Assembly (NCBI RefSeq): GCF_009734345.1
Contig: NZ_CP032551.1
Coordinates: 2,370,001 to 2,402,000 of the forward strand
Source of the DNA: Pseudidiomarina andamanensis
GTDB taxonomy: Bacteria; Pseudomonadota; Gammaproteobacteria; Enterobacterales; Alteromonadaceae
Length of the DNA stretch: 32,000 bases
Direction of reading: 5' to 3'
The position numbers were made by a program, and so were the translations under genes. Of the stretch, positions 1-28,958 are shown piece after piece. Numbering within the stretch: the stretch's first letter is position 1; the number at the start of each line of letters is the position of its first letter. Under the pieces are notes generated by a model that was not told the DNA's origin, did not search any database, and worked only from the letters and a program-made list of their open reading frames with translations.

Positions 1-573
1 GATGATGATATTGACGGCAGCTACGGCGCGGAATCAGTGGATTATCAAAGTTTGCAGTTTCCGTATCGTGCAGCGAACAGTTGGCTGGTTCACGTGAGCG
101 AATTACGCTTAGTGCGTGGTGTGACGGCGCGTATTTATAACCAAATAAAACCGTACGTGTGCGTTATTCCGCGAGATAACAGCCTGAAATTAAACATAAA
201 TACGGTTAAGAAAGATCAGCCAGCTTTGTTGCATGCGGTAACTGTCGGCGCTATGTCGATGGGGGATGCCGCGAGTTTCTTGGCCTCCCGTCGAGAAAGC
301 GGCTATGAAAGTATGGACGATGCGCGTAATAATGGGGCCATAAATGATGCAGCAACGCGCGGCGTGCAACCTAAATTTGTCGGCAACGTGCCCCCAAATG
401 GCGTGACCGCACAAACCATCGGTGGCGCACTTGACGATTTAGATGTGAAAAGTAAGTATTTCCAATTAAACGCAAAAATTGGTTATGGCGATCTAACCAT
501 GGCCGCCGAAAGCCAGTTTTTAATCACCAGCGAGACCGCTGAAGTTTTGTATCGCGGCGCAGGAGAACCCTAG
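1..573 (+). CDS. gspK: Type II secretion minor pseudopilin GspK, C-terminal part (5'-truncated by the window edge)
   Basis: Frame 1 is open from nt 1. It begins DDDIDGSYGAE..DY, which resembles the GspK Ca-binding motif. The gene lies directly upstream of gspL/M/N with a 3-nt gap. Confidence 0.85.
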   Translation, partial: DDDIDGSYGAESVDYQSLQFPYRAANSWLVHVSELRLVRGVTARIYNQIKPYVCVIPRDNSLKLNINTVKKDQPALLHAVTVGAMSMGDAASFLASRRESGYESMDDARNNGAINDAATRGVQPKFVGNVPPNGVTAQTIGGALDDLDVKSKYFQLNAKIGYGDLTMAAESQFLITSETAEVLYRGAGEP

Positions 574-576
574 ATT

Positions 577-1803
577 ATGGAACAACTATTTATCCGCTTG
601 AGCTCGGCTGAACGCGAGCCGCTGCACTGGCTGATTTGGAGCCCAGAGCAAAGCGAACTCATTGCAAGCGGAACGCTGAATGATCTGTCCGAATTAAGCC
701 AACTGACCGATCATGCCCGTAGCCGCGAAGTGATTTGTTACGCGCCGGGTACCGATGTGTTGCTCACTGAAGTTGAGTTACCGAGTAGCGCGATTCGCAT
801 GCTGCCTCAGGTGGTGCCGAATGCGCTGGAAGATGAATTGGCGCAGGATATTAGTGAGTTGCACTTCGCATGGCCTCCAGCGAAGAAGGGGGGTGCAGTC
901 CTTGGACTGCACGTTGCTGTTGTCGCCCGCGATGCCATGCATAAATGGCTATCAGCGCTTGAGCAAGCCGACATCGAATGCGATGAAATTTACCCCGATA
1001 TTTTTATGGTGCCAGCGCCGCAGGTGCAGCCGCAGTTGTCTGAAAGCGAGGAGGGTGCAGACCCAGCTCCGGAGCAAGGACTGCACCCCACCTCCCTAAC
1101 CTTAGGCGAGACGGTGATTATTCGCACCGGGCAGTACACTGGCTTCACCACAGACACCGCGCTCGCGCCGATAGTAACCGAAGGTATGCAGTTGCAGCCG
1201 GTTGAAAAAATGGACATTGAAGTGCCGTTGAGTGTGGTCGCCACCACTTATAATGCGCGCAAATCCACGCCACCGATGATTAATCTTCGTCAGCAAGAGT
1301 TTCGCTCGCAGCACAAAAAGCGTAAAGGCGTGAAAGCAAGCACTTACAAACCTGCGGCGATTGCTGCAGGCGTGTTACTCGCCGTGGCCTACAGTTCGCA
1401 GGTGATTGAGTATGTGCATCTTGGCAATCAAAGTGAACAACTCGAGCAAGCGATTGAGCAAACTTACCGCGATGCGTTTCCGAACGAAAAACGCATTGTG
1501 AACGTGCGCTCGCAGCTTAATCGTCATTTAGAGAGCTTAGGTATGCAAGGCACAAAGTCATCGCCGCTTGAGTTATTGGCGCATCTCGAAAGTGCATTTA
1601 AAGCGAATCGCGATGTCAGACTTGAACTGATTCGATACGATGACAAGACCCTCCGCATGCAGGTAAAAGCGAATAGTTTCGCGAGCTTAGAGAATTTTCG
1701 AAAAGTGGCGAATCAAGGCGGTCAGATTGTCGTCGAGCAAGGGCCTGTGAATAACCAAAGCGGTGCTGTAAGCGGCGCCCTAACCGTGAAGAAGGACGTG
1801 TGA
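577..1803 (+). CDS. gspL: Type II secretion system protein GspL/EpsL
   Basis: 408 aa with N-terminus MEQLFIRLSS..PLHWLIWS, typical of GspL/EpsL. It has a single central TM segment (AAIAAGVLLAVAYSS) and sits between gspK and gspM. It carries two in-frame copies of the palindromic repeat. Confidence 0.85.
   Translation: MEQLFIRLSSAEREPLHWLIWSPEQSELIASGTLNDLSELSQLTDHARSREVICYAPGTDVLLTEVELPSSAIRMLPQVVPNALEDELAQDISELHFAWPPAKKGGAVLGLHVAVVARDAMHKWLSALEQADIECDEIYPDIFMVPAPQVQPQLSESEEGADPAPEQGLHPTSLTLGETVIIRTGQYTGFTTDTALAPIVTEGMQLQPVEKMDIEVPLSVVATTYNARKSTPPMINLRQQEFRSQHKKRKGVKASTYKPAAIAAGVLLAVAYSSQVIEYVHLGNQSEQLEQAIEQTYRDAFPNEKRIVNVRSQLNRHLESLGMQGTKSSPLELLAHLESAFKANRDVRLELIRYDDKTLRMQVKANSFASLENFRKVANQGGQIVVEQGPVNNQSGAVSGALTVKKDV
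882..912 (+). repeat. Palindromic repeat copy A (short form), in frame inside gspL
   Basis: Sequence is GAAGAAGGGGGGTGCAGTCCTTGGACTGCAC, with a GTGCAGTCC/GGACTGCAC 9-bp inverted repeat. It is near-identical to the intergenic copies at 3936 and 4628. It translates as KKGGAVLGLH. Confidence 0.85.
1046..1096 (+). repeat. Palindromic repeat copy B (long form), in frame inside gspL
   Basis: Sequence is GCGAGGAGGGTGCAG[ACCCAGCTCCGGAGCAAG]GACTGCACCCCACCTCCC. The outer arms match the short form and the centre holds a nested GCTCC/GGAGC palindrome. It translates as EEGADPAPEQGLHPTS. Confidence 0.8.
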
Positions 1804-2330
1804 TGCCTAGTTTGTTACAGCAATTTATACAGCGCGTTCCAGGCCTCGAAACACGGTTAAACCAAATGAACCAGCGCGAGAAGCTTTTAGTGAGTGTCGC
1901 TGCTGTGCTATTTGTGGTTACACTCGCGTATTTCATTGCATGGAAGCCGTTAACCGATGGCATCGCTGAGCGCGAAACCAAAGTTGTCGCGCAGCAAGAG
2001 CTATTGCAGTGGGTGCGCGAAAACACCGGCCGCTATTTGTCACAAAAAGGTGGGGTGCAGTCCAAGGACAGCACCCCCACCTCATCCATGAGCGGCAGCA
2101 TGAGCGAACGTGTCACGCGCTTAGCCACCGCCGCCAAAATCGAAGTCACACGCATGCAGCCGCAGTCAGACAGCTTAGTTGTGGTGATAGACGAAGTGCC
2201 ATTTAACGCACTACTTCAGTTCATCGAAAGCCTTGAGACTCAAGCCGGCTTAGTTATTGAACACCTCGATGCGACCGAAGGCGGCGAGCCGGGGATCGTT
2301 CGGGTACGTCGCTTGCAGGTGGCGGAATGA
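1803..2330 (+). CDS. gspM: Type II secretion system protein GspM/EpsM
   Basis: About 175 aa with one N-terminal TM segment (LLVSVAAVLFVVTLAYFIAW). The ATG overlaps the gspL stop (TGATG); the ORF track's GTG at 1800 is an alternative start. Position between gspL and gspN supports the call. Confidence 0.8.
   Translation: MPSLLQQFIQRVPGLETRLNQMNQREKLLVSVAAVLFVVTLAYFIAWKPLTDGIAERETKVVAQQELLQWVRENTGRYLSQKGGVQSKDSTPTSSMSGSMSERVTRLATAAKIEVTRMQPQSDSLVVVIDEVPFNALLQFIESLETQAGLVIEHLDATEGGEPGIVRVRRLQVAE
2049..2083. repeat. Palindromic repeat copy C (short form, symmetric/inverted), in frame inside gspM
   Basis: Sequence is GGTGGGGTGCAGTCCAAGGACAGCACCCCCACCTC. The AA loop, versus TT in the other copies, suggests the opposite orientation. 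It is read in a different frame and translates as KGGVQSKDSTPTS. Confidence 0.75.
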
Positions 2331-3100
2331 TGTCTTGGCGCTGGTTGTTATGGTTAATTCCGTTTTACTTGGTTGCGTTGGTGGCACTGACTCCCGCTGC
2401 GGTGATTAAGTGGGGTGCAGGCCTAGCTCCGGAGCAGGGACTGCACGTCTCCTCCACCAAAGGTACGATATGGAACGGGCGCGCAAATATTAGCGCGAAG
2501 TTGCCAACTGGCGGCACGCTAAATCTTGAAGATGTGCAATGGCAACTGAACCCTTGGAAGTTATTCATGGCAGAAGCGGAAATCGCAATTGATATTCCGT
2601 CGAAGAATTATCTCTATGGCACTGCCACTATCAACGCCGGTATGTCGGAAGCGCAGCTCAAAGCTAATTTTCAAGGCGCAATGCAGCCGGCGATCCAACA
2701 ATTGAAACTTCCCGTACCCATCACCATGGCAGGTAACTTCCAACTTGATATTAATGACTATCAAGTATCTAATTTTAATAGTGGAAAGATCTGTGATGCG
2801 TTAACTGCTACAATCAATGCACGGCGAACTGAAATGCGCATTAACCAGCAATGGCATGAGTTGGGTGACTATTTAGCCAAGCTTTCATGTAATGCGCAAA
2901 ATGGCATCAATGTCGAAATAGACGACAATAACCTCGTCGGTTTACGCCTTAGCGCACAAGTAAATGGGCGCATTGATGCACCGCAAGTAAGCTTAACCGG
3001 TAGTATGAAACCTACGTTGCAGACGCCGCAGCCAATTTCTGAGTTATTAGTTTTCATCGGAAAACCAGACGCTCAAGGCCGATATAACTTCAAATGGTAA
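2327..3100 (+). CDS. gspN: Type II secretion system protein GspN
   Basis: 257 aa with an N-terminal TM segment (WLLWLIPFYLVALVAL) and a GTIWNGRA motif typical of GspN. The start overlaps the gspM stop (ATGATG). It is the last gene of the gsp operon. Confidence 0.75.
   Translation: MMSWRWLLWLIPFYLVALVALTPAAVIKWGAGLAPEQGLHVSSTKGTIWNGRANISAKLPTGGTLNLEDVQWQLNPWKLFMAEAEIAIDIPSKNYLYGTATINAGMSEAQLKANFQGAMQPAIQQLKLPVPITMAGNFQLDINDYQVSNFNSGKICDALTATINARRTEMRINQQWHELGDYLAKLSCNAQNGINVEIDDNNLVGLRLSAQVNGRIDAPQVSLTGSMKPTLQTPQPISELLVFIGKPDAQGRYNFKW
2410..2458 (+). repeat. Palindromic repeat copy D (long form), in frame inside gspN
   Basis: Sequence is GTGGGGTGCAG[GCCTAGCTCCGGAGCAGG]GACTGCACGTCTCCTCCACC. 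It translates as WGAGLAPEQGLHVSST, in the same reading frame relative to the element as copies A and B. Confidence 0.8.
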
Positions 3101-3112
3101 AAAGGAGTACTT

Positions 3113-3925
3113 ATGGATCAAGTCATGACATGGATTAGCGACAACCAAGAGCTAATTCTCAGCTACACAGTGAAATTTATCGTCGCAATTATCATCTTAA
3201 TTGTGGGTAAGATTGTGGCGAATTCAGTTGCCAAATTAATGGGCAAAGGCATGGAGAAACGCGGCACCGATAAAGCCGTAATTAGCTTCCTTGGCGCCAT
3301 TGTTCGTTCGGTCATATTCATTGCCGCCGTGCTAATGGCATTGTCTCAAGTAGGCGTCGAAACCACCTCATTTATTGCCATTTTAGGTGCCGCCGGTTTG
3401 GCGATAGGTCTGTCATTGCAAGGCTCGCTATCGAACATGGCGTCGGGCGTATTAATCATCTTATTCCGTCCATTCCGTGCCGGTGAATACGTGGACGCAG
3501 GTGGCGTTTCGGGTACCGTTGAAGAAGTGAACATCTTCCAAACTATCTTGAAAACACCAGATAACAAAGTGGTATTCGTGCCGAATGCGCAGATTACCGG
3601 CTCACCAATTACGAACTACAACCGAGAAGATACTCGCCGTGTCGATCTGCTCATCGGCGTGTCATACGACGCCGACTTGCACAAAACCAAAGAAGTGCTT
3701 GAAAGTGTGTTGAAAGCCGACGAGCGTTTGCTTAAAGATCCAGCTTGGAACATTCAAGTTCATGCACTGAATAGTTCTTCAGTCGACTTTATCGTCCGTC
3801 CTTGGGTGAAAAGCACTGACTATTGGGGTGTCTACTGGGACTTGATGCGCGAAATTAAAATCGCATTAGACAAAAACGAAATTGGAATCCCTTATCCACA
3901 AATGGATGTGCACCTGCACAAGTAA
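3113..3925 (+). CDS. mscS: Small-conductance mechanosensitive channel (MscS family)
   Basis: 270 aa that aligns along its length with my recollection of E. coli MscS (e.g. LGAAGLAIGLSLQGSLSN, FRPFRAGEYVD, IPYPQMDVHL). AAGGAG RBS lies 7 nt upstream. Confidence 0.9.
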   Translation: MDQVMTWISDNQELILSYTVKFIVAIIILIVGKIVANSVAKLMGKGMEKRGTDKAVISFLGAIVRSVIFIAAVLMALSQVGVETTSFIAILGAAGLAIGLSLQGSLSNMASGVLIILFRPFRAGEYVDAGGVSGTVEEVNIFQTILKTPDNKVVFVPNAQITGSPITNYNREDTRRVDLLIGVSYDADLHKTKEVLESVLKADERLLKDPAWNIQVHALNSSSVDFIVRPWVKSTDYWGVYWDLMREIKIALDKNEIGIPYPQMDVHLHK

Positions 3926-3935
3926 ATTCTGAGCA

Positions 3936-3976
3936 AAAGAAGGGTGCAGTCCTTGGACTGCACCCCACCTCTCGCC
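3936..3976 (+). repeat. Palindromic repeat copy E (short form), intergenic, 10 nt after the mscS stop
   Basis: Sequence is AAAGAAGGGTGCAGTCCTTGGACTGCACCCCACCTCTCGCC. Its 34-nt core is identical to copy F. Confidence 0.9.
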
Positions 3977-4014
3977 TATGCTGAAAGCAGGATTTCAACA
4001 AAAGGAAGACTGCA

Positions 4015-4629
4015 ATGAAACCTTTCGTAACAAAAATGTCAGTTGCTGCGGTAGCGATCGCCGCATTAACAACCGCAGCGCAAGCGCAACAAACCATGCA
4101 GCAACCGAGCTTCGACAAGCTAGGCGTTAGCTATATCAACTACGACCTCGACGGCGAAACCCTCAACGGCGCCGGCCTGCAGTTCAACCGCCACATCAAC
4201 CAAGACTGGTTCCTTGATGTGAATTACATTTACGCCACCGACGACTACACCATTAGCGGCATTGACGTCGATGCCACCGCAAACACCCTATACGGTAACC
4301 TTGGCTTCAAGTTCTACCAAATGAACAACATGGTGGCCTACGCCAGTGGTGGCTTGGTCTACAGCGAAATTGACGTCGACAGCGGCGTTGGTGGATACAA
4401 CGAAGATGACACCGGTTGGAACGCACAAATTGGTATGCGTACGCGCCTCACCGACGCTTTCGAAGTGGACGCGAACGTGCGTCACGTCGACATCTACGAT
4501 GACAGCGATCAAGAGTGGAGCCTCAGCGGCCAGTACTACATCACTAATGAATTCAGCGTAGGCCTTGGTTACACACTTGTTGACTCTGACAACAGCTACG
4601 TCGCGCTCAGTGGCAACTTCCATTTCTAA
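4015..4629 (+). CDS. Outer-membrane beta-barrel protein (OmpA-like/OmpW-like small porin family)
   Basis: It has a signal peptide MKPFVTKMSVAAVAIAALTTAAQA, alternating aromatic/hydrophilic beta-strand patterning, and a C-terminal ..GNFHF ending in Phe. AAGGAAG RBS is present. Confidence 0.65.
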   Translation: MKPFVTKMSVAAVAIAALTTAAQAQQTMQQPSFDKLGVSYINYDLDGETLNGAGLQFNRHINQDWFLDVNYIYATDDYTISGIDVDATANTLYGNLGFKFYQMNNMVAYASGGLVYSEIDVDSGVGGYNEDDTGWNAQIGMRTRLTDAFEVDANVRHVDIYDDSDQEWSLSGQYYITNEFSVGLGYTLVDSDNSYVALSGNFHF

Positions 4630-4670
4630 AAGAAGAGGGTGCAGTCCTTGGACTGCACCCCACCTCTCGC
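4628..4670 (+). repeat. Palindromic repeat copy F (short form), intergenic, overlapping or abutting the OMP stop codon
   Basis: Sequence is AAAAGAAGAGGGTGCAGTCCTTGGACTGCACCCCACCTCTCGC. Confidence 0.9.
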
Positions 4671-4781
4671 TTACAATTTTCACCTTTACAGCCCACTAAC
4701 TACCTGATAGATTTACAAGTGATCACCCACATAGACGTGGGCTGATTGGCCAATCAAAGAAGTAAGGAAGAGGAAAATAGT

Positions 4782-5060
4782 ATGAAAACTTTATCAGCAT
4801 TATTTGCTGCTGCAGCATTGGCTTTAGCGCCAACTGCAATGGCATCTGGTCAAGCCGGTGGCGCTGAGGCATCTGGTTCAGGTGCAGCATTCTCTACTGG
4901 CGCAATGGTAGCAGCTGGCGTTGCTGCAGTTACAGTTTTAGTTGTTGCAACTGACGACGACGACGACTTCGTATCTCCAAAGCCAGTTGAGCCACCAGTA
5001 GTACCACCAGTAAATCCAGGTACTACTACTTCAACCAGCACTACCACTTCAGGTATGTAA
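4782..5060 (+). CDS. yjbE: YjbE/GfcA-like small secreted/membrane protein (module 1)
   Basis: It starts at ATG 4782 with a GGAAGAGGA RBS; the track's TTG at 4746 is unlikely. The protein has a signal peptide MKTLSALFAAAALALAPTAMA, an Ala/Gly-rich region, a hydrophobic stretch, DDDDD, and a Pro/Thr-rich tail ending TTTSTSTTTSGM. This architecture matches E. coli YjbE/GfcA as I recall them. Confidence 0.7.
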   Translation: MKTLSALFAAAALALAPTAMASGQAGGAEASGSGAAFSTGAMVAAGVAAVTVLVVATDDDDDFVSPKPVEPPVVPPVNPGTTTSTSTTTSGM

Positions 5061-5082
5061 GCTCGTTTGAAGTAAAACAAAA

Positions 5083-5115
5083 GTCGCAAGCGAAAGCTTG
5101 CGGCTTTTTTATTTT
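5083..5115 (+). terminator. Rho-independent terminator after yjbE-like gene 1
   Basis: GTCGCAAGC-GAAA-GCTTGCGGC forms a 9-bp stem with one G-U pair and a GNRA-type loop, followed by TTTTTTATTTT. Confidence 0.75.
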
Positions 5116-5130
5116 GTGAAGGTGATAAAT

Positions 5131-5949
5131 ATGTTAATATCGCCCACACAAATAGAGCAAAAAGCCCCAGCAAACAGAACTCAAAATAACAACATGACAG
5201 CCAAACACTCGCTTTACATTCAAATCATCATTTTGGCTCTCATCAGCACGCTAATCAGTGGCTGCAGCGTGCGCCTTCAAAACTACAAAGAAATTGTCAC
5301 TGAGCTCTTCAACACACCAGAAGATGTAACGCTCAGCCAACAAGAAATTGAAGAATTCCCATACGCCGGTAGCTACATACAAGTTGACGAGCGTCCGCGC
5401 GCATTTATGGCATTGGCTTTCGACGATAATGGCGTACTCAAATGGCGCACCGGTGGCGAGGAAATTATCCATACTAAGCACGGCCGCATAACCGCTACCA
5501 ACAACATGAGCGGCGCCATTGCGCACACAAGCAACCTAAAAAACGACCCGTTAGCGTGTTTCCGCGAAGCAATCCGAAGAAACAACCAAGACCTCACCAA
5601 CTGCCCAACAACATGGCAACGTGACATTTGGGTAACTACTGCCACTCCGAACAAAATTGAAGATCAGGCGTATACGTACACCTCAGAATTCAGAGTAGGC
5701 GCCACCGAGCAAGTGAACTTGGCCAATGGCACCTCGCACCAAGTCATTAAAATCGAAGAACGCATAGGCACAAGCGACAACAACGTAGCAACCAACACCT
5801 TTTACATCAGCACCGACAATGCCCGTATCGTAAAATCGCACCAGCTGATTGCGCCTCCAAGTAGCTCACAAAGTAGCTCCGAAAGTACCTTCGCAACCAT
5901 TGAAGAAGTGAAGCCGTACACCTTAGAAGAAGTGAAGAATAACGGATGA
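5131..5949 (+). CDS. yjbF: YjbF/GfcB-family outer-membrane lipoprotein (module 1)
   Basis: It has a lipobox LISGC preceded by MTAKHSLYIQIIILALIST. ATG 5131 has a GAAGGTGA RBS, and ATG 5194 is an alternative start. The track's TTG at 5098 lies inside the terminator hairpin and is rejected. It is paralogous to the N-terminal half of ORF 29582-30970 (shared EI..FPYA..Y.. and LAFDDNG/LGYDDNH blocks). Confidence 0.72.
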   Translation: MLISPTQIEQKAPANRTQNNNMTAKHSLYIQIIILALISTLISGCSVRLQNYKEIVTELFNTPEDVTLSQQEIEEFPYAGSYIQVDERPRAFMALAFDDNGVLKWRTGGEEIIHTKHGRITATNNMSGAIAHTSNLKNDPLACFREAIRRNNQDLTNCPTTWQRDIWVTTATPNKIEDQAYTYTSEFRVGATEQVNLANGTSHQVIKIEERIGTSDNNVATNTFYISTDNARIVKSHQLIAPPSSSQSSSESTFATIEEVKPYTLEEVKNNG

Positions 5950-8900
5950 TTTCGCGCACACTTAAACTCACGGCTATCGCACTCGCTGTAGCAACGGCTG
6001 CAACAAGCGCGTACGCTCAAAGCCAAAAACCAACCGTCGCCGTCAAAATCCAAGGCCCAGAAAAGACACCAGAGTTGCAATTCGCAGGCAGCCCACGCCT
6101 AAGTCAGGTGTACGCGAACGCGCAAATTAAACCAGAAGAAATCTTCTGGCCTGGCGTACGCCTTGTAAGCGCAGAAAAACACAACGAGATCATCCAAAAA
6201 CAAAAGCAGCTCACCCAGCAGCTCTACAAACTCGAGCGCTACTTTCAGCAGGAAGAACAACGCAACTACGCGCAGCTCGCCAATCGCATTGCTGGGCAAG
6301 TCGCCAGTTGGCCAGTTGTAGGCGCAGAGCCAATCGGACGTGGTCATGTCGAACAGGGGCCGAAAGGTACCACCCTCGGTGTCGATATCAATAAAAAGAG
6401 TAGCCTCACTAGCTATTACGACGAAGCGCGCCTCAACATCAATGCAAACCCGCAGCTTCCGCAGGGTTCCAAAGAACAGCCGACGCGGTATCAGTTGCTC
6501 ATGCCAACAATCGAAAAACACCAAACCACGCACCTGCAAGTAATTGGCGCCGTGTGGATGCCGTTCACCATGAGCTATCATCCGCATTTCACTGCGCGCG
6601 AAACGGCGCACAAAGAGAACTTCAAACAGCGCCTCGAAGCAATCACACATAAAGACAAAGTGCTACAAGTTAGCGCGCAAGGTGACGTGCAAGAAATAAA
6701 CATTGATCCGTACAACGCCCACAGCCAAAAATTCTCGGCGGGGGCAAAAATCATCGCGTTGTTCAACACCAGCAAACTGCCCAAAGAATTCAAAGACATT
6801 AACAAGCAAATGGCAGAGCTGGCGAAATACTGGAACCCGTTGCAGCCAACGTTAAAAGAAACCAGCCATTTCACCACGCTGGGCAAATACACGCAAAGCG
6901 AGAAAGACCAACAGCCGCCATTATTACTCTTTGGTGAAGCCGACAAAAAACTGCGTCCAACTACCAGCGATTTCGGCAGCATCGGCCTGTTACAAATGCC
7001 AAGCGGCCGCCACGCCGAGCAGGGCGAGTTCAGCTTTACCTATTATGATCAAGACGAGTACAGACGTTGGGCATTAAACTTGCAGCTGTTTCCCTGGTTA
7101 GAAGCAACCATTCGCTACAACGACATTCGTACGCGTCGATACAGCCAAGATGTTAACTTCTCAGGCGACCAGACCTATAAAGACCGTGGCGTCGATTTAA
7201 AATTTCGCCTTACCGAAGAAAGTCGTTGGATACCAGAGACGAGTGTGGGTATTAGAGATGCTGCAGGCACCGGCTTATTCGCTGGCGAGTACGTTGCCGC
7301 GAGCAAACGTTTTGGCAACTTTGATTTTACTGCAGGTTTAGGCTGGGGCTATCTCGGCAAAAACAATAACGTGAACAACCCATTCTGCGAACTAGCCGAC
7401 GAGTTCTGCAGTAGAACGGACGGTTTCAGTGGCCGTGGCGGTAGCTTCGAAGTCGATAAGTGGTTCAAAGGCAACACTGCCTGGTTCGCTGGCTTGGAAT
7501 ACCAAACGCCGTGGGATCCGCTCAGTATCAAAGTTGAATACGACAGCAATAACTACAAAAATGAGCCATCAACCGTCACCATGCCACAAGATTCCCGCTG
7601 GAATTATGGTTTAGAGTATGACCTTGGCAATAACATGAGCATTAAAGCCAGTTACGAGCGTGGCAATACCCTCATGTTTGGCTTCACCATTCGTACTAAC
7701 TTGGCAAACGCATCACAACCGAAAATTGATAGTCATCCGAAGCGCCCACCAGCGCCGCCGCGCCTAAAAACTGTCGAGCAACTCAAGCAAGCAGAAGAAT
7801 TAAACAAACTGCGCATGGCACTCAACACCGAGGCGAGCACTTGGGTGGATGAAATAGCGCTCAGTGAAGATAACCAAACATTGACCTTATACGGTAGCCA
7901 ATATCGCTATCGTGACAGCGAGCTTGGCCTCGAAAAAATGGGACGCGTGTTGGCAACCGAAGTACCTGACACCATTAAAACCTATCAGTTTGTGAATCAG
8001 TCGGGCAGCATCAACTTGGCGCAAAACAACATTGACGCCGAATTATTTAAAGATGCGATAGCGCGTAGAACCATCAACGCAACCACGCAACAGGCCTATA
8101 GCCGCAGTGAAGTAACGGATAAGCCAGGCGAAACACTTTTCAAAGATGAGTTTGAATTTGCCCAGTTGCCAACGGTGAGTGTGAAGCCGTTTTTAGATCA
8201 AAGTTTCGGGGGGCCAGAAAGCTTCTATATGTATCAAGTAGGCCTTGATGCACGTTTGATCTATTCACTCAGCCCGAATACATATATTTATGGCACCGCT
8301 AGTGCGCGTATTGCCGATAACTACGATAAATTCAATTATACAACTGGCGAAGAAACCGGTGCATTGCCGCGAGTACGCACCTATGTTCGCGAATACGTTA
8401 CCAGTAGCGATATATTCTTGCGTGATCTGCAACTGGTGCATCGTCTTCAGTTAGCTGACAGCTGGTTCGCCGGCGCCTACATCGGTTATCAAGAGCAAAT
8501 GTTTGGCGGATTCGGCGGTGAAGTACTTTATCGCGAACTTGATAGTAACTGGGCGGTCGGTTTAGACGTAAACTACGCAAAACAGCGCGATTGGGAAGAC
8601 CACTTCGGCTTCCGTGATTACGACGTGATTACCGGCCACTTAACGGGTTATTGGCGCCCGAGCTTCCTCCCCAATACATTAATTAGCGTCGCGGCAGGCC
8701 AGTTCTTAGCGGGTGATCGCGGAGTGCAGGTATCCGTTGACCACAAATTCGACAGCGGCATTATCGTTGGCGCTTATGCAGCCAAAACCAACGTATCAGC
8801 GCGAGAATATGGTGAGGGTAGCTTTACCAAAGGCTTCTATATCAGCATTCCGTTTGACATACTGCAGTTACGTTATAGCGCTGGCCGTGGTGCCATCAGC

Positions 8901-8996
8901 TGGACGCCACTAACGCGAGACGGCGGACAAATGCTCGGTGGTGGCGTTGGCTTATTCGGCGCAACCGATAAGCGCAGTCCTTACTACGTTGACTAA
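5946..8996 (+). CDS. yjbH: Fusion protein: YjbG/GfcC-like periplasmic domain (about aa 1-330) plus YjbH/GfcD-like outer-membrane beta-barrel (from about aa 339, nt about 6960)
   Basis: 1016 aa with signal peptide MISRTLKLTAIALAVATAATSAYA. The N-terminal part fits the GfcC pattern (V.V......RL......W, NP.LP.G). The C-terminal part starts DFGSIGLLQMPSGR..QLFPWLEATIRYNDIR, the characteristic YjbH N-terminus. It is clearly paralogous to the ORF starting at 30971. The start overlaps the yjbF-like stop (ATGA). Confidence 0.75.
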   Translation: MISRTLKLTAIALAVATAATSAYAQSQKPTVAVKIQGPEKTPELQFAGSPRLSQVYANAQIKPEEIFWPGVRLVSAEKHNEIIQKQKQLTQQLYKLERYFQQEEQRNYAQLANRIAGQVASWPVVGAEPIGRGHVEQGPKGTTLGVDINKKSSLTSYYDEARLNINANPQLPQGSKEQPTRYQLLMPTIEKHQTTHLQVIGAVWMPFTMSYHPHFTARETAHKENFKQRLEAITHKDKVLQVSAQGDVQEINIDPYNAHSQKFSAGAKIIALFNTSKLPKEFKDINKQMAELAKYWNPLQPTLKETSHFTTLGKYTQSEKDQQPPLLLFGEADKKLRPTTSDFGSIGLLQMPSGRHAEQGEFSFTYYDQDEYRRWALNLQLFPWLEATIRYNDIRTRRYSQDVNFSGDQTYKDRGVDLKFRLTEESRWIPETSVGIRDAAGTGLFAGEYVAASKRFGNFDFTAGLGWGYLGKNNNVNNPFCELADEFCSRTDGFSGRGGSFEVDKWFKGNTAWFAGLEYQTPWDPLSIKVEYDSNNYKNEPSTVTMPQDSRWNYGLEYDLGNNMSIKASYERGNTLMFGFTIRTNLANASQPKIDSHPKRPPAPPRLKTVEQLKQAEELNKLRMALNTEASTWVDEIALSEDNQTLTLYGSQYRYRDSELGLEKMGRVLATEVPDTIKTYQFVNQSGSINLAQNNIDAELFKDAIARRTINATTQQAYSRSEVTDKPGETLFKDEFEFAQLPTVSVKPFLDQSFGGPESFYMYQVGLDARLIYSLSPNTYIYGTASARIADNYDKFNYTTGEETGALPRVRTYVREYVTSSDIFLRDLQLVHRLQLADSWFAGAYIGYQEQMFGGFGGEVLYRELDSNWAVGLDVNYAKQRDWEDHFGFRDYDVITGHLTGYWRPSFLPNTLISVAAGQFLAGDRGVQVSVDHKFDSGIIVGAYAAKTNVSAREYGEGSFTKGFYISIPFDILQLRYSAGRGAISWTPLTRDGGQMLGGGVGLFGATDKRSPYYVD

Positions 8997-9022
8997 GAAC
9001 CGTTGATTAAGAGGGAATTTAA

Positions 9023-10189
9023 ATGGCAAAAGTAGTTGTCGCCGGCACCGGATACGTCGGCCTGTCAAATGCCGTGTTACTTGCACAGCACAACCAAGTG
9101 CATGCGCTCGATATTGTGCAAGAAAAAGTTGACCTGATTAACGCAGGTAAAAGCCCTATTGAAGATAAAGAAATCAGCGCGTTTTTAGCCGAAAAAGAAC
9201 TGAATTTATCCGCGACAACTGACCCAAGTGTTTACGCGGAAGCCGAGTGGGTAATTATAGCAACGCCAACCGATTACGATGCACAAACCAATTACTTCAA
9301 CACGCGCTCGGTTGAAGCCGTGATTGAAACCGTACTAAAGCATAATCCGCAAGCAGTGATGGTGATTAAGTCGACCATCCCGGTGGGTTATACCAACGAG
9401 TTAAAAGCGAAATTTAAAACCGACAATATTATCTTTTCGCCCGAGTTTTTGCGTGAAGGTAAAGCATTACACGATAACCTGTACCCATCACGCATTATTG
9501 TGGGTGAGCGCTCACCACGCGCTGAAGTATTTGCAACGATGCTGAAGCAAGGCGCGATAAAACAAGACGTACCGGTATTATTCACCGATGCCACTGAAGC
9601 TGAAGCGATTAAATTATTCGCAAATACCTTCTTAGCGATGCGCGTGGCATACTTTAATGAGTTAGACACCTATTCAGCAGTGCATGGCTTAGATAGCCGC
9701 CAAGTGATTGAAGGCGTATGCTTAGATCCGCGAATTGGCAACCATTACAATAACCCGAGTTTCGGCTATGGTGGTTACTGTTTACCGAAAGACACCAAGC
9801 AGTTGTTGGCAAACTACGATGAAGTGCCACAGAATATGATTCGCGCGGTGGTGGATGCTAATCGCACGCGCAAAGATTTTATTGCCGAAGATATTCTGCG
9901 CCGTAACCCGAAAGTTGTTGGCGTTTACCGCTTAGTGATGAAGCAGGGTTCAGATAACTTCCGTGCTTCGGCAGTGCAGGGCGTCATGAAACGCTTGAAG
10001 GCCAAAGGTATTGAAGTAGTAGTATATGAACCCGTACTAAAAGAAGAATCATTTTTTAACTCACGTGTGATTCGTGACTTAGAAGAGTTTAAGCGAGTGA
10101 GCGATGTGATAGTAAGCAATCGCCACCAAGACGTGCTTAGCGATGTCGCGGATAAAGTGTACACGCGTGATTTGTTTGGTAGTGACTAA
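9023..10189 (+). CDS. ugd: UDP-glucose 6-dehydrogenase
   Basis: 388 aa with N-terminus [18 protein letters not shown] (Rossmann GxGxxG) and the catalytic-Cys motif [12 protein letters not shown]. Length is typical of Ugd. Confidence 0.92.
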
Positions 10190-10203
10190 GCCATTATAAA
10201 AAT

Positions 10204-10229
10204 CAGCAAGCTTAAGATTAAGCTTGCTG
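10204..10229. terminator. Bidirectional hairpin between convergent ugd and the GT4 gene
   Basis: CAGCAAGCTTAA-GA-TTAAGCTTGCTG is a perfect 12-bp stem. On the minus strand it is followed by TTTTTAT. Its right arm overlaps the last codons and stop of the GT4 gene. Confidence 0.65.
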
Positions 10230-11318
10230 TTCCACCTGTTCTATAATCAGTATTAGTTGATCTATTTTAATTTTAACGTCAAAATTTTCTTGAGCGTAAC
10301 GTATAGAACTTTCTCGCAAACTAGCGCGAAGCTCCGGACTATCAATTAATTTTTTAATATTTCTAACGATACTGTCGATGTCCTTGAAGCTTGAAACGTA
10401 ACCGTTTACACCATTTTCAACAGCATCTTGGCAACCGGGAACATTATAGGTCAATGTCGGTATTCCCATGGCGCTTGCTTCCATAACACATACAGGGAAA
10501 CCCTCGCGTACCGAAGGTAATAACAACACATCAGAATCGGTATATAATTCTTCGATATTTTGAACGAATCCCAGAAATTCGATGTGCTCCCCGAACTTTT
10601 GCTTGATACATTCAATATCGTTGTGGGTAAGAGAGGAAGGATTATTGGGATAATAATCTCCAATAACCTTTAATTTCACATTCAGTCCCAGCGAGAGGCA
10701 CTTTTCTAGTACCGCGAAAGAATCTTTGATTCCTTTATCTTCAATTAGACGACCGACATAAACAAGAGTTAAACCGTTATGAGGTACAATCTGTTGACTT
10801 TGGAACCGCTCCAAGCTTATTCCAATACCATTTGTGACTATATCAGATGGTTGACCAATTTGATTTCGCTCGTCCGAATTACAGAAAACTCTCGCTTCAG
10901 TAAAACGTTTTATTAGCGTTCGGAGAATTGTCTTAGCAAATGTCCGTTTTGTAAAAAAACTACCTAATCCTTCAACCGATAACAATAGACGCTTATTAAA
11001 TAGTGCCAATGTTGGAAGCGAGAAAATAAATGTAGTTAGAAAGAAACAAAGATAGGTTGTGTTTCTGCGTCTCAATCTGAATTTTGTAATTGTCCAATTA
11101 AAGTCGAGAACGCTCCACAGCAGACCAATCCCCTTATTGAATTTTCTAACTGCAACGATCTTGCATCCCATATTTTGCAAGGCTTGCTGTGACTTAATAC
11201 AGTCTGCTGGAGCTATAACATATACGCGCCTGCCATCGGCAATAAATCGAGCAATGTATTCCTTTCGGAAGATATAGGTTGTTCTAATTGAGTTTTGAAC
11301 TATACAAATATCGTTCAT
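10218..11318 (-). CDS. Glycosyltransferase, GT4 (GT-B fold) family
   Basis: 366 aa with a C-terminal E-x7-E-type motif (REGFPVCVMEASAMGIPT). Polysaccharide-locus context supports the call. Confidence 0.8.
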   Translation of the reverse strand: MNDICIVQNSIRTTYIFRKEYIARFIADGRRVYVIAPADCIKSQQALQNMGCKIVAVRKFNKGIGLLWSVLDFNWTITKFRLRRRNTTYLCFFLTTFIFSLPTLALFNKRLLLSVEGLGSFFTKRTFAKTILRTLIKRFTEARVFCNSDERNQIGQPSDIVTNGIGISLERFQSQQIVPHNGLTLVYVGRLIEDKGIKDSFAVLEKCLSLGLNVKLKVIGDYYPNNPSSLTHNDIECIKQKFGEHIEFLGFVQNIEELYTDSDVLLLPSVREGFPVCVMEASAMGIPTLTYNVPGCQDAVENGVNGYVSSFKDIDSIVRNIKKLIDSPELRASLRESSIRYAQENFDVKIKIDQLILIIEQVEQQA

Positions 11319-12196
11319 GAAATTACTCGTTTAACGGTGTAGTAAAGTGTTTTCGAGAGAAAGCTAAAGGAGACAAGACCTCTGTTGCAGGCCGCTTTAT
11401 ACCATTCGCTAAAAACGCCTGCTTGAATGCTTGGACCGAGAAGTTGAACAATCATGAAGTTCTCACGTATCTTCCTATTTTCCGTTAATAAATACCTGTC
11501 GAAAAAATGAAGCGACTTCTCAAGTGACCAGTTATGTTTAATTTTGGCGATCTTGCCCGATTTGACATAATCAACTAGCACATCATCGACAAACCTCAAT
11601 TTGAGTCCGGATGCTTCGGCGTTAATTATGAATTGATAATCTTGATGTCGTGGCAAAGAGCTATCGAAACCGCCAATACGAAGAAAATCTTCTTGTCGCA
11701 TCATTAGTGTTGAGGTTTGGAACGCTAAGTTGTGAAATAATGAGCCAAATAAGTTCTCACAAAACGTTTTTGTAACATCAAATTCACTTGCAACTCTAAG
11801 AGCGGTTACTCGATCCGATGCAACAGCACGTACTCGACAGCTAACGATGCTGGATAATTCAAGAGCATTTAACTGCTTTTCCAGTTTTTGAGGGTACCAA
11901 TAATCATCAGCATCTAAAAAACACAAGACATCTCCGGAAGCATTTCGAGCACCGATATTACGACTATCGGCAGCATTAGTATTCTCATGCTTTTCGATAA
12001 GCTTAATTTCCGATAGGTTAAAACTTTGGAGAATCTGATGTAGATCAACAACATCTTTAGAACCATCGTCAACAATAATAATTTCGAATGGTTTAATTGT
12101 TTGTGACATTAAGCATTCAACTGCATGTTTGATGGTTTTTGATGCATTATATGTGGGTATTACGACGCTAACTTTCATCTTTCTTTTCGTTACCAT
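11315..12196 (-). CDS. Glycosyltransferase family 2
   Basis: It contains VSVVIPTYNASKTI...EIIIVDDGSKD and a DADD motif. The internal ATG at 12178 (MKVSVVIPTYN) is a plausible alternative start. Confidence 0.8.
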   Translation of the reverse strand: MVTKRKMKVSVVIPTYNASKTIKHAVECLMSQTIKPFEIIIVDDGSKDVVDLHQILQSFNLSEIKLIEKHENTNAADSRNIGARNASGDVLCFLDADDYWYPQKLEKQLNALELSSIVSCRVRAVASDRVTALRVASEFDVTKTFCENLFGSLFHNLAFQTSTLMMRQEDFLRIGGFDSSLPRHQDYQFIINAEASGLKLRFVDDVLVDYVKSGKIAKIKHNWSLEKSLHFFDRYLLTENRKIRENFMIVQLLGPSIQAGVFSEWYKAACNRGLVSFSFLSKTLYYTVKRVIS

Positions 12197-13403
12197 AAGA
12201 GTAAGAAGGATTTCGTAATAAAATATCCAAAATTATAAATACCAAAAAGAAGTAAATATATTTATATTTGCTCCCAATGTAATAAGAATAAAAAAACATT
12301 AGATACGAAATTAATATGTAGGACTTCAAATATAAGAGAGTAATTGAAGATTTTCTAATTGATATATATATCGTATTAAATAACGTGTAGAAAATTACGA
12401 ACCCAAAGATAGACAGCGATGCTAAAACAGTGGCAGCACCGGTAATCATATTGTATTTATCGTTTAAAATGAAGCCCATAGAGAGTCTATGTTCAGCATA
12501 GGCACTACCCAAATAACCGAGAAATATATCGGTCGATAGAGTCATTGGAAATACGTTGCTTTCTAATTGATAGAAAAGATTATAATAATTGGGTATCAAA
12601 TAATTCAAGAACGCAAGAACAAGCTCTAGCCCCTCGCTGTTAGAACCCCTGACGAAGAGAGAGAAGAGGGTAAAGAAAGTTAAAAAGAAAAACACAACAA
12701 AATAAAACAGGCTGCGAATTTTTTTGAATCCAACCAACGCTATATAAAACGTCAGAGGGAAAAATAAAGCATCAAAAACCGTATACTTTATTCCGTGAAA
12801 TGCAGATATCAATACTAATCCAATCGCAATTAAATGGTCAAAGAATTTATTATTTCCAATGTAAAATCGTAATGCATACATTATCAAGGCAGGAACATGT
12901 AAAAAGTACAAATAATTAATGTACCAATATTGGCCGAATAAAACTTCATACTTTCGTGGTGCAGTAAACATCATCGATACCGAAAAACCCACGCGATTGA
13001 AATTTAGAAGAAATGCGGTGAAGGCTAGGCCTGACAACAAATAGAAAAACAACTTAATTTTTGCATGCGAATAAGTATTTACGAGAGATAAGTCTAATCT
13101 ATTTCTGCCAACAATTTCTCCTCTCGACTCAACGATGTATCGAGTTAGTAAAAAGGCAAGCGAATAAGAGAGACTAATAATTGTCAACCAAAACCAAGAA
13201 CGCCATGTTAAAGTAAATGAATCTAGAGTTAGCCACCCCTTTTCAGCCCCGATTCCAGCTAGAAAATGTACTGGAAACAATCCTAGAAAGAAAATAAATG
13301 GGGCTGAGAATATAAAGAGAACTTTCCCTTCTGAAGGGTCCGCCCACAAAGCTACTATCAAACTTGATAACGTAACCAGGAGGAATAGCCATGCTTCAAA
13401 CAT
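12168..13403 (-). CDS. wzy: Oligosaccharide repeat-unit polymerase (Wzy-like), multi-pass membrane protein
   Basis: 411 aa, strongly hydrophobic with about 10 or more predicted TM stretches. GC is extremely low (23% in a hand-counted sample, 12241-12340). It is located between wzz and GT genes. No diagnostic motif exists for this family, so the call rests on context. Confidence 0.55.
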   Translation of the reverse strand: MFEAWLFLLVTLSSLIVALWADPSEGKVLFIFSAPFIFFLGLFPVHFLAGIGAEKGWLTLDSFTLTWRSWFWLTIISLSYSLAFLLTRYIVESRGEIVGRNRLDLSLVNTYSHAKIKLFFYLLSGLAFTAFLLNFNRVGFSVSMMFTAPRKYEVLFGQYWYINYLYFLHVPALIMYALRFYIGNNKFFDHLIAIGLVLISAFHGIKYTVFDALFFPLTFYIALVGFKKIRSLFYFVVFFFLTFFTLFSLFVRGSNSEGLELVLAFLNYLIPNYYNLFYQLESNVFPMTLSTDIFLGYLGSAYAEHRLSMGFILNDKYNMITGAATVLASLSIFGFVIFYTLFNTIYISIRKSSITLLYLKSYILISYLMFFYSYYIGSKYKYIYFFLVFIILDILLRNPSYSYGNEKKDES

Positions 13404-13420
13404 AATTGTTAATTACTCAA

Positions 13421-14359
13421 CTATTTTCTTGATGGAATTAAAAGATGCTTGAAAACAATTATAAATACGGAAACAAAACCACCCAAAAATGCTCCGAAAA
13501 TTATAATTAGAATTCTATTGGGTGAGTCCTTTCCCTCTGGCACAATAGCAGGGTCAATTATCGTTAGTACGTAGTCAGGTCGAACATTTGCGAACATTCT
13601 GGTTCTTGTTTGCTGCTCAATTAGATTGTAGAAAACACTCTGCATTTCTGTTAACGAGCTCTCTGCAATTTCATTTTGAAGGTACTCAATGCTGCGATTT
13701 GCTTCTTGGACATCCCTTTCTCGCATGTAATCATTGATGTCTCTTATCAGAGAGGTTACCCATTGGTGGGCTACAATTGGAGAAATGTGAGTTACAGCAA
13801 TATCAATAAGTCCGGTTTCAGGATTTTTTGTGATCTCAATTCTTTCTCGTAATTTTGGAATATAGCTCCAACTTGAAGGTGCTAGGGATTGACTGTTTTT
13901 CTCATTTGTTGCCCATTTCCGTTTGTTTGAGTCGAAAATTTCACGGTTGTATACCAACTGTTCTGTCTGTGGATTCCAGCTCTCGACAGCCATTAGCTCG
14001 GGAAGGATATCGTGTTTTTCTACAAACTCTTTTAAGAATTTGCGCGATGTAAGAGTTTCGATAGCAATTGTTATTTCGTCTATTTTTTTTGTTCCCAAGT
14101 TCAGTCCTGTAAGCGAAACAACACTTGAAATTGGAGATGCTATATTCGACAGCGAATTTGAATCGCCTGACTCTGCAGGAGCAACAATTGCCCCTGACTT
14201 ATAGATATTTGGCTGTGAAAATGCATAAATCCCAAATCCAAGAGCAAAAACAAAAACGGAAACGCTCAGGAATACCCAGTTTTTACGCAATACTAATAAA
14301 ATTTCGAGCAATGAAAATCCGGAGTACTGGTCTTGGCTATGATTTATATTCATGTTCAC
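13421..14359 (-). CDS. wzz: Polysaccharide chain-length determinant (Wzz, PCP-1 type)
   Basis: 312 aa with an N-terminal TM after LLEILLVLRKNW, a long coiled periplasmic region, a Pro-rich segment (DPAIVPEGKDSPNR) and a C-terminal TM. There is no kinase domain. Confidence 0.75.
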   Translation of the reverse strand: MNMNINHSQDQYSGFSLLEILLVLRKNWVFLSVSVFVFALGFGIYAFSQPNIYKSGAIVAPAESGDSNSLSNIASPISSVVSLTGLNLGTKKIDEITIAIETLTSRKFLKEFVEKHDILPELMAVESWNPQTEQLVYNREIFDSNKRKWATNEKNSQSLAPSSWSYIPKLRERIEITKNPETGLIDIAVTHISPIVAHQWVTSLIRDINDYMRERDVQEANRSIEYLQNEIAESSLTEMQSVFYNLIEQQTRTRMFANVRPDYVLTIIDPAIVPEGKDSPNRILIIIFGAFLGGFVSVFIIVFKHLLIPSRK

Positions 14360-14718
14360 AATGTCTCGAAGGTGTCGTTTAGAACTTGGGATATGTCAAA
14401 ATTCATATCCATCCATCAAATTGAGGTTAGCAAATGCGCAACATTTATTTGATTAATTTAGCTTCGATGTCATCTATCGTGTGCTAAGGAGCATTGATTC
14501 TACCAGTGCTAAACTGCACGTCAATGCAAAGGTAGACTATAGTTAATTTAGTATAAAACAGTCGGTGAAGTGTAAAAGTGGGCGATATTGTTAATTTGTT
14601 GCTTCAACACACTGTGGCTTTCAGATAGAATTTATCAAGCTTAACAATTCGATTACTTAAGCTCACCACTCATATTGTGAAGAATCTCAGATTGAATTCG
14701 GGAGTTAGACTGTAAGGT

Positions 14719-28461: not shown

Positions 28462-28958
28462 AATGGTACGTCATCCGCACCAAGCCGCGGCAAGAACAAC
28501 GCGCATTGGTGAACCTTGAGAATCAAGATATAGAGGCCTATTTGCCGCAAATTACGGTTGGCAAAGTACGCCGGGGTAAGCGTGTGCCGGTAACCGAAGC
28601 GTTGTTTCCTGGCTATATCTTTGCGCAGTTGGATGACTTTGCTGGTCGCTTCCATAAAATCCGTAGCACTTTTGGCGTACAGAAATTGTTATTGTTTGGT
28701 GATAAGCCTGCGACAGTTCCTGACGCACTAATTGACGAATTAAAAACGCTTGAACATGATCCAATCACGCAAACAACAGCAGAACACCAGGCATCACCTC
28801 AAGTTGGCGATCAAGTAGAAATAGCCAACGGTCCGTTTGCTGGGTTTATCGCGAAGATCATTGATTTAGATGGAGATTCTCGTTGTATTGTTCTGCTCGA
28901 TTGGTTACAAAAAGACGTACAAGCCTCGTTTTCGTATACTGAATTGAAAAAAATTTAA
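28458..28958 (+). CDS. rfaH: Transcription antiterminator RfaH (NusG paralogue)
   Basis: 166 aa starting MKWYVIRTKPRQEQRA..., with PLFPGYIF and a C-terminal KOW-like GDQVEIANGPFAGF. It aligns along its length with my recollection of E. coli RfaH. An exact ops site lies 221 nt downstream. Confidence 0.85.
   Translation: MKWYVIRTKPRQEQRALVNLENQDIEAYLPQITVGKVRRGKRVPVTEALFPGYIFAQLDDFAGRFHKIRSTFGVQKLLLFGDKPATVPDALIDELKTLEHDPITQTTAEHQASPQVGDQVEIANGPFAGFIAKIIDLDGDSRCIVLLDWLQKDVQASFSYTELKKI

Follow-up and report, generated by a model that had tools for sequence, protein, structure and literature searches.

The subject of this report is a small GC-rich palindrome that occurs six times between nt 883 and 4668 of a 32-kb stretch of DNA from Pseudidiomarina andamanensis (contig NZ_CP032551.1; the whole 32-kb stretch is called the window here). 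The copies lie in and just behind the 3' part of a gsp operon, which encodes a type II secretion system (T2SS): four are in frame within genes (two in gspL, one each in gspM and gspN), and two lie 3' of the stop codons of an mscS-family gene and of an outer-membrane protein (OMP) gene. We argue below that they probably belong to a family of repetitive extragenic palindromic sequences (REPs) linked in relatives to a REP-associated tyrosine transposase (RAYT), and for brevity they are called REP copies throughout.

Genes and palindrome copies at the locus

The genes and REP copies are listed in window coordinates, with strand (aa, amino acids; TM, transmembrane; HMM, hidden Markov model).

1..573, plus: gspK, 3' part (the gene extends past the window start); Pfam T2SSK_1st and T2SSK
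577..1803, plus: gspL, 408 aa; Pfam T2SSL and GspL_C; homologues in Pseudidiomarina
883..920, minus: REP copy 1, short form, palindrome 893-912; gspL aa 103-112, KKGGAVLGLH, in frame; HMM 37 bits on the minus strand
1048..1096, plus: REP copy 2, long form (GGGTGCAGACCCAGCTCCGGAGCAAGGACTGCACCCCACCTCC), palindrome 1055-1086; gspL aa 158-174, EEGADPAPEQGLHPTS, in frame
1800..2330, plus: gspM, 176 aa; Pfam T2SSM
2045..2085, minus: REP copy 3, short form, palindrome 2055-2074; gspM aa 84-96, KGGVQSKDSTPTS, in frame
2327..3100, plus: gspN, 257 aa; Pfam T2SSN
2405..2456, minus: REP copy 4, long form, palindrome 2415-2446; gspN aa 29-44, WGAGLAPEQGLHVSST, in frame, directly C-terminal of the TM helix
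3113..3925, plus: mscS-family channel gene, identified by Pfam
3934..3973, plus: REP copy 5, palindrome 3944-3963; intergenic, the element 9 nt and its core 18 nt past the mscS stop codon
4015..4629, plus: outer-membrane beta-barrel protein gene, between REP copies 5 and 6; Pfam OMP_b-brl
4629..4668, plus: REP copy 6, palindrome 4639-4658; intergenic, the element abutting the OMP stop codon, its core 9 nt past it

The six copies were found by mismatch-tolerant and gapped patterns, repeat finding and direct reading. A preliminary description of the window, made from the letters alone, had placed six copies with 9-bp inverted repeat arms at nt 882-4670, and all six are there. In the short form, GTGCAGTCC-TT-GGACTGCAC, the two 9-bp arms enclose a 2-nt loop (TT); in the long form (copies 2 and 4), a 14-nt palindrome takes the place of this loop and adds 12 nt, or four codons. 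With its flanks the element measures about 36-40 nt and reads AGAGG(T/A)GGG-GTGCAGTCC-WW-GGACTGCAC-CCC(A/T)CCTCT, and the 9-bp arms can be extended to a stem of 11-16 bp below either the 2-nt loop or the 14-nt palindromic tip. Intergenic copies 5 and 6, described earlier as sharing an identical core, are identical across 35 nt. Two of the in-gene copies are less regular. In copy 1 (gspL), the REP-like part is limited to the 5' G-run and the 20-nt palindrome, the other flank consisting of conserved VAVV codons. Copy 3 (gspM), which was picked up by the mismatch-tolerant searches and fits the family better on the minus strand, has a mismatch in one arm (2066-2074), where CTGCAC has become CAGCAC and the consensus Cys codon TGC thereby a Ser codon, AGC.

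The pattern GGTGCAG-N(2-30)-CTGCAC gives eight strand-matches at five of the six sites, against 0.02 expected from shuffled sequences. An HMM of the family (57 members) run on the whole window with filters off and E<=50 matched nothing beyond the six places, degenerate copies and single arms included, in agreement with the preliminary description, which could not find the element in the other 27 kb. A search of window positions 1-6000 against Rfam (E<=1) returned no relevant family. The predicted hairpins fold at -20 to -28 kcal/mol, with z scores of -2.7 to -5.1 in five of the six copies (copy 2, -27.6 kcal/mol, z = -4.5; copy 3, -24.1 kcal/mol, z = -5.1). Because the family consensus is free of stop codons in all six frames, translation can pass through any copy with a length divisible by three. 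The frames of gspL, gspM and gspN are indeed open through the REP copies, each protein has a full-length Pfam match, and the peptides quoted in the preliminary description are real translations. GspL homologues point to Pseudidiomarina, and the closest of them (95-96% identity) are metagenomic.

Nature of the in-gene copies

Three of the four in-gene copies share one reading frame (G-A-x-x-G-L-H), which might be taken for a conserved peptide motif common to GspL, GspM and GspN. The in-gene copies are nevertheless elements of the DNA and not a shared peptide motif, for several reasons. First, identical non-coding copies exist. Second, the gspM copy is in another frame and on another strand. Third, orthologous sites switch frame between lineages. 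At the gspM site, one relative (locus L030; the gsp loci of relatives, retrieved via their GspL proteins, carry L numbers) reads as AVQGLHPTS the same nucleotides that the window reads as GVQSKDSTPTS, and compensating indels on both sides restore the frame. P. woesei has a REP type of its own at two sites, gspL site 2 and that of gspN, and reads the gspN one in a frame other than that of the window; taken over all gsp genes, the element occurs in each of its three frames. The gspN site holds the short form in P. gelatinasegens, strain EA13-11 and L030, the long form in the window clade, and nothing in L023. Fourth, distant orthologues in the outgroups L022, L023 and L024 lack the REP-encoded residues, the opposite of what the preliminary description had named as the mark of a protein motif. 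Fifth, synonymous positions are conserved, as set out next. The frame switches and the non-coding copies already refute the motif, whose probability we put close to nil.

Synonymous conservation was measured as the fraction of identical codons among those encoding the same amino acid, in the REP segments and in the rest of gspL, gspM and gspN:

P. marina: REP 49/52, rest 440/682, p=1e-6
P. tainanensis: REP 35/38, rest 316/525, p=2e-5
L029 (a 95% relative): REP 50/52, rest 597/719, p=0.005
L028: REP 31/43, rest 386/653, not significant

Synonymous sites are thus far more conserved in the in-gene copies than elsewhere in these genes when the window is compared with P. marina, P. tainanensis and L029. 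In-gene copies 1 and 3 of L028 decay as fast as the background, and the site of copy 6 is empty there, with a clean indel of about 40 nt and no evident duplication. Copy 1 has likewise decayed in P. gelatinasegens, and P. woesei lacks the gspM copy.

The alignment of GspL, GspM and GspN orthologues, which had been proposed as a check, shows presence or absence at gspL site 2, a true insertion relative to L022, L023 and P. homiensis, and small additions at two other sites: 3-7 residues in gspN and 2-4 in gspM relative to outgroups. By contrast, gspL site 1 is length-neutral, the segment having the same length in nearly all orthologues and being one codon shorter in one. An AlphaFold (AF2) model of GspL has a low-confidence loop at aa 151-167 (predicted local distance difference test score, pLDDT, <50) and its next strand from aa 172; site 2 (aa 158-174) thus covers the C-terminal end of this loop and just beyond, to the strand at 172, and site 1 covers a loop and the first residues of the beta-strand at 108-117. 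Of the insertion points given in the preliminary description, the one in gspN does lie directly after the TM helix. gspL copy 1, by contrast, is not an insertion, and the gspM copy lies not just after the TM helix but about 35 residues past it, in the linker before the globular domain.

Two further observations concern the encoded peptides. In GspK of P. gelatinasegens (L010, about 6625-6660), GCSPCS has become GGSPSS, so that the consensus Cys is replaced as in gspM of the window; the replacements suggest that selection at the protein level disfavours Cys in these components of the secretion system. In L021:8464-8507 and in the GspL homologues P0007-P0012, the P. woesei-type REP found at gspL site 2 is lengthened by units of 12 nt (GGTCCGGACCAG, encoding GPDQ), which gives DQGADHAPDQGADQGLH-type repeats of variable length (alignment columns about 170-215). 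Since intergenic copies show the same 12-nt periodicity, it is not due to coding.

Distribution of the family in other genomes

Outside the gsp operon, the census was made with exact 20-mers, from which degenerate in-gene copies elsewhere could escape, in 185,579 species representatives and in metagenome contigs. Among the species representatives, the 20-mer is confined to six Pseudidiomarina/Idiomarina genomes, apart from two matches in unrelated genomes that look like chance. The exact counts are 10 in P. tainanensis (in seven separate stretches on two contigs), 7 in P. marina, 4 in sp. EA13-11, 3 in P. gelatinasegens, 3 in the metagenome-assembled genome (MAG) 34-48-12 and 1 in EA15-06; metagenome contigs contributed 17 more loci. 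The k-mer search of relatives suggested in the preliminary description thus finds the element elsewhere in related genomes, and not solely in the window. The roughly 50 non-gsp copies from genomes and metagenomes are all intergenic, 5-30 nt past stop codons and often between convergent genes; their neighbours are OmpW, OMP, PagL, MsrA and similar genes. In relatives the family is therefore dispersed at low copy number, mainly extragenic and almost always near 3' gene ends, as REPs are; placement just downstream of genes is classic for REPs (Di Nocera et al. 2013, PMC3733652). Two apparent departures were set aside: a copy in L038 that seemed to lie inside a gene is actually intergenic, and pairs spaced by about 720 bp in L001 and L005 are not a duplicated OMP cassette, as PagL and MsrA genes lie between them. 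Our literature search found no paper on this Pseudidiomarina REP family.

Positions 5-30 nt past stop codons, often between convergent genes, would also suit a family of intrinsic (bidirectional) terminators whose sequence is shared through common descent; many relatives have A-rich/T-rich flanks, and the minus strand of copies 5 and 6 scores like a terminator. However, on the plus strand of the upstream genes these two copies continue into CCCACCTCTCGC and not into a U tract, so that the combination of a GC-rich hairpin and a T-rich tail exists on their minus strand only. Four copies, moreover, are within parts of an operon that are essential and in which stopping transcription would do harm, the ordinary terminators of the window (e.g. 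5079-5108) are unrelated to the element in sequence, and the association with a RAYT would be left unexplained. We consider a terminator family improbable.

RAYT genes in relatives

In several relative lineages, a Y1 transposase gene lies close to the gsp operon. In P. woesei (L021) the order is gspN-mscS-hipBA-RAYT-pagL-OMP, and the RAYT is bracketed by this lineage's own repeat, GAGGGGGCGGCCCCTGGTCCGGACCAGGGTCTGCACCCCTCTCTC. In L025, a P. gelatinasegens-like MAG, the RAYT (3001-3720) sits between OMP and mscS, at the exact position of window copy 5, and its flanks (GGGGTGCAGTCCCAGCTCCGGAGCTGGGACTGCACCCC) are the long form of the window element. In L027 and L048/L049, the RAYT is next to mscS, again with different REP sequences, and in L049 it is flanked by the repeat of its own lineage. 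In four relatives, as seen in the synteny of L021, L025, L027, L048 and L049, mscS adjoins the RAYT or is two genes away. Three lineages thus have a RAYT that is flanked by their own repeat and that adjoins, or lies near, mscS just 3' of the gsp operon. None of the outgroups L022, L023 and L024 has a RAYT near mscS or REPs in gsp, and the same is true of P. homiensis, which served with L022 and L023 as an outgroup for insertion status.

The assignment of the transposase rests on several matches: Pfam Y1_Tnp; NF047646, 'REP-associated tyrosine transposase', as the best NCBIfam match at 72-76 bits (IS200, 20 bits); and E. coli TnpA-REP (4ER8) as the sole match in the PDB, with which the HUH (HFH/HMH) and Tyr (Y-x-x-x-NPV) motifs align. 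Cluster members are named RayT in UniProt and NCBI.

In L025 the gene is part of a 1413-bp cassette, REP-RAYT-REP-orf124-REP (L025:2891-4303; orf124 is an ORF of 124 aa), which is a clean indel relative to L010:2599-2605 (strain R04H25, same species level). In L010 the cassette is replaced by 5 nt, the flanks are 92-95% identical, and the right cassette end coincides with a REP. Recombination between flanking REPs was considered as a route of RAYT loss and rejected, the L010/L025 breakpoints being outside the solo REP.

Two other features of these loci deserve mention. Half-REP arms occur within RAYT coding sequence (L048:644-661 and 895-918; L049:13648 and 13901). In the mscS-OMP spacer of L030 (13339-13520), a run of N separates two REP arms, possibly an assembly gap to which REP or RAYT repeats may have led.

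In-gene copies across the gsp operon

In-gene copies were seen only in gsp genes, and there in up to 8-9 genes per operon. Close relatives of the window have an extra REP arm in gspK, upstream of the window start, and the distribution in individual lineages is as follows:

L030: gspC, D, F, J, K, L (two), M, N
P. woesei: gspD, E, F, J, K, L, N
P. gelatinasegens: gspK, L, M, N
L029: arms in gspF, gspJ and gspK, upstream of the window start
L049: gspC, E, F, H, I, J, L, M, N

Four lineage-specific REP variants are found in the operon, namely the window type, the P. woesei type, the L030 variant and the L049 type, and the same linker positions are often occupied in lineages with different REP types. 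The L049 type (GGGGGCTGACACC/GGTGTCAGCCCCC), from a Pseudidiomarina sp. metagenome scaffold (960-14571; GspL P0017), is unrelated in sequence to the others. Allowing at most one mismatch, its 12-mer arm occurs 21 times within nine gsp genes (11.7 kb), in several frames, where about 0.05 would be expected by chance, and nine more times around and within the RAYT. There is none in hsp33, mscS or the 6.7 kb downstream. Several of these arms lie in regions without a length difference from orthologues.

We tentatively suggest, from these sequence patterns, that a RAYT might act preferentially on its chromosomal neighbourhood and have written the REP arms that belong to it, time and again, into coding sequence of the 12-kb T2SS operon next to it. 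This idea, which is possible although still doubtful, arises because four REP variants share the operon, often at the same linkers, because L049 has 21 arms in gsp against none in flanking genes other than the RAYT, and because some arms replace native sequence with length unchanged. If it were true, the operon would show for the first time in nature at which places and in what way RAYTs deposit or renew REPs, and the REP-RAYT pair could have a role in T2SS expression.

Length-neutral occurrences such as window copy 1 and single L049 arms could also point to protein-binding sites of an uptake-signal or operator kind, accumulated by molecular drive or regulation, and inverted pairs 3' of genes are known from DNA uptake sequences (DUS) and uptake signal sequences (USS). 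DUS/USS, however, occur about once per kb genome-wide, coding sequence included, whereas exact copies of the present element number 1 to 10 per genome; none lies in 27 kb of the window or in the 6.7 kb downstream in L049, and the stem of up to 16-23 bp is typical of a hairpin rather than of an operator. Such sites are very improbable.

A more serious alternative, compatible with a REP origin, is that the in-gene hairpins are cis elements of the long gspC-N transcript or of the DNA (segmental mRNA stabilisers, processing or pause sites, or sites bound by the domesticated RAYT nearby) kept by selection and not by transposition. The strong conservation of synonymous sites would fit this, as would the stability of the predicted hairpins, the persistence of the long forms as imperfect hairpins in five genomes, not reset to perfect ones, the occupation of the same linkers by different REP types in distant lineages, and the conserved gsp-mscS-RAYT synteny. 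Yet L028, with its operon intact, has lost copy 6 and shows background-rate decay of copies 1 and 3, copy 1 has decayed in P. gelatinasegens, P. woesei does without the gspM copy, and in-frame hairpins would be unwound by ribosomes. Selection for such cis elements therefore seems rather unlikely.

Discussion

The reading that we prefer, with a probability of about 0.82, is that the six elements belong to a Pseudidiomarina REP family that is RAYT-linked in relatives, and that the operon adjoining the RAYT home locus was populated in an ancestor. It sharpens the earlier proposal of a REP- or MITE-like DNA repeat (MITE, miniature inverted-repeat transposable element) to a REP family. Among the evidence for it are the dispersal of the family past stop codons in relatives, the RAYT genes flanked by the repeats of their own lineages beside the gsp operon, and the presence/absence polymorphism of the elements, seen at the copy 6 site of L028 and in the L025/L010 cassette.

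On this basis we propose the following scenario. REP hairpins would be recognised, and probably spread and maintained, by a RAYT acting on single-stranded DNA hairpins. In the ancestor of the clade, linkers of T2SS proteins that permit insertions would have received REP copies, the most plausible reason being that the RAYT home locus lies beside the operon. From then on the copies would have been passed on vertically and their nucleotide sequence kept or renewed, be it by RAYT-dependent turnover, templated conversion or selection on the hairpin. The encoded Gly/Ala/Pro-rich peptides would be merely tolerated by the Gsp proteins. For length-neutral copies (window site 1, L049 arms), both templated replacement and stepwise change are conceivable. 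The window lineage probably once had a RAYT in the spacer between mscS and OMP and lost it, with copy 5 remaining as a solo copy, and intergenic copies 5 and 6 are probably 3' mRNA-stabilising hairpins, by analogy with REPs elsewhere. Binding, cleavage and mobilisation of these repeats by RAYT are putative activities, to which the filled and empty copy 6 site, the lineage-specific homogeneity of copies and the decay in L028 point indirectly.

Several observations weigh against this reading. The 10-20 copies per genome fall far short of what classical REP families have. At the 5' end, no GTAG tag stands out clearly: many copies have GTGG before the stem (AAGTGGGGTGCAG, GAGGTGGGGTGCAG), others GGAGGGG or GAAGGG. 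The RAYT score is just below the NCBIfam equivalog cutoff (76.4 vs 80 bits). A tblastn search with five Pseudidiomarina RAYTs as queries found no RAYT in the 32-kb window, nor at the loci from P. marina and P. tainanensis, and a homologue search with cluster look-up named none for the latter two species, so that any ongoing RAYT action in the window lineage is putative. The length-neutral gspL copy 1 and several single L049 arms are unexplained by simple insertion. The imperfect in-gene long-form hairpins are conserved as such across five genomes, which selection on sequence fits better than repeated conversion from perfect masters, and which leaves room for a hairpin function in the gsp transcript. 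Finally, the exact 20-mer census outside gsp bears on the restriction of in-gene copies to this operon, as degenerate ones elsewhere could have been missed.

To our knowledge, how REPs spread and stay uniform and how RAYTs benefit their hosts are open questions, and we know of no direct observation of RAYT-driven REP movement in cells. This clade is a compact natural experiment in this respect, with a low-copy REP family beside a RAYT at a conserved locus, close relatives with and without the RAYT cassette, and one lineage with decaying in-gene copies and one empty site. In-gene copies at orthologous sites have to preserve the reading frame, so that an alignment of the proteins reveals each change. 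In addition, GspC, D, E, F, J, K, L, M and N accommodate in their linkers 4-25 additional residues, whatever the sequence, which is useful for engineering or tagging T2SS components, and in annotation, REP-encoded Gsp segments should not be taken as conserved motifs or domains.

Other features of the window

Beyond this locus, the window consists of a cluster for the synthesis and export of polysaccharide, whose terminators are ordinary and unrelated in sequence to the REP. Just past copy 6, an intergenic stretch at 4690-4745 (CTGATAGATTTACAAGTGATCACCCACATAGACGTGGGCTGATTGGCCAATC, with a small CCCAC...GTGGG hairpin) is highly conserved, being kept in P. marina, P. tainanensis, L028 and L030; it lies 5' of a 104-aa open reading frame (ORF) and may be a regulatory leader. 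This small ORF (4746-5060) has a signal-like N-terminus, an Asp/Pro/Thr-rich low-complexity tail and no Pfam match, and is followed by a canonical intrinsic terminator (5079-5108). Further along are a YjbH of 1016 aa with a fused GfcC-like N-terminal domain (5946-8996), a perfect 24-nt palindrome near the pgi start that is unrelated to the REP family (18612-18635; CAAGGCGTCGATATCGACGCCTTG), a NusG/RfaH-like paralogue (28458-28958) and a second YjbF paralogue that is longer (462 aa) and lies at the cluster's far end (29582-30970).

Comparison with known systems

The closest parallels are the E. coli REPs and bacterial interspersed mosaic elements (BIMEs) with TnpA-REP and the Pseudomonas REPIN-RAYT systems. 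As in these, the Pseudidiomarina repeats are short, GC-rich imperfect palindromes, dispersed and mostly just 3' of genes; a single-copy Y1 (HUH) transposase gene is flanked by the same repeats, here in relatives; the repeat sequence co-varies with the lineage; and the RAYT is at a conserved chromosomal position. Unlike the E. coli and Pseudomonas REPs, which number hundreds, those of Pseudidiomarina come to 10-20 copies per genome, have no clear GTAG tag, have longer stems (up to 16-23 bp) with a hairpin tip that varies in 12-nt units, and have a quarter or more of their copies within the coding sequence of one operon. In the window lineage, moreover, no RAYT was found.

The Rickettsia and Neisseria elements with which the preliminary description had compared the repeat stand as analogies and not as its family. 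Like Rickettsia palindromic elements (RPEs), it consists of palindromes that sit in functional genes with the frame kept open, where the protein has a surface or a linker. However, elements of the RPE-1 type measure about 100-150 bp and occupy many unrelated genes without a linked RAYT, whereas the present ones measure 24-50 nt, have their in-gene copies in gsp only, belong to gammaproteobacteria and share no sequence similarity with them; size, host and gene range thus separate the two. Similarly, Correia elements and other MITEs are small, non-autonomous, foldable and occasionally fused to ORFs, but they measure 70-300 bp, have terminal inverted repeats (TIRs) and target site duplications (TSDs), and are linked to a DDE transposase. 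The present element is a single Y1-linked hairpin of 24-50 nt with no recognisable TIR or TSD, and the indel of about 40 nt in L028 is without evident duplication.

Intragenic REPs have been catalogued before: GTAG/CGTC REPs, of which GTGG is a known tag variant and for which Idiomarina loihiensis is among the host genomes, are read through in frame as units or dimers, adding 7-30 residues (Di Nocera et al. 2013, PMC3733652). That catalogue includes a REP dimer in general secretion pathway protein E of P. putida (Pput_2288, aa 19-45), so an equivalent in T2SS genes, of which the preliminary description knew none, is on record, and it also includes the recB genes of two Xanthomonas species, with different REPs at about one site (PMC3733652). 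Unlike the hosts in that study, which are scattered and include many DNA-repair genes, the in-gene copies seen in Pseudidiomarina are all in one 12-kb operon beside the RAYT locus, and orthologous copies follow lineage-specific REP sequences and switch frame. Intragenic, in-frame REPs are therefore already known, though uncommon; the unusual points here are that the in-gene copies are confined to one operon beside a RAYT locus and that they are renewed in a lineage-specific way.

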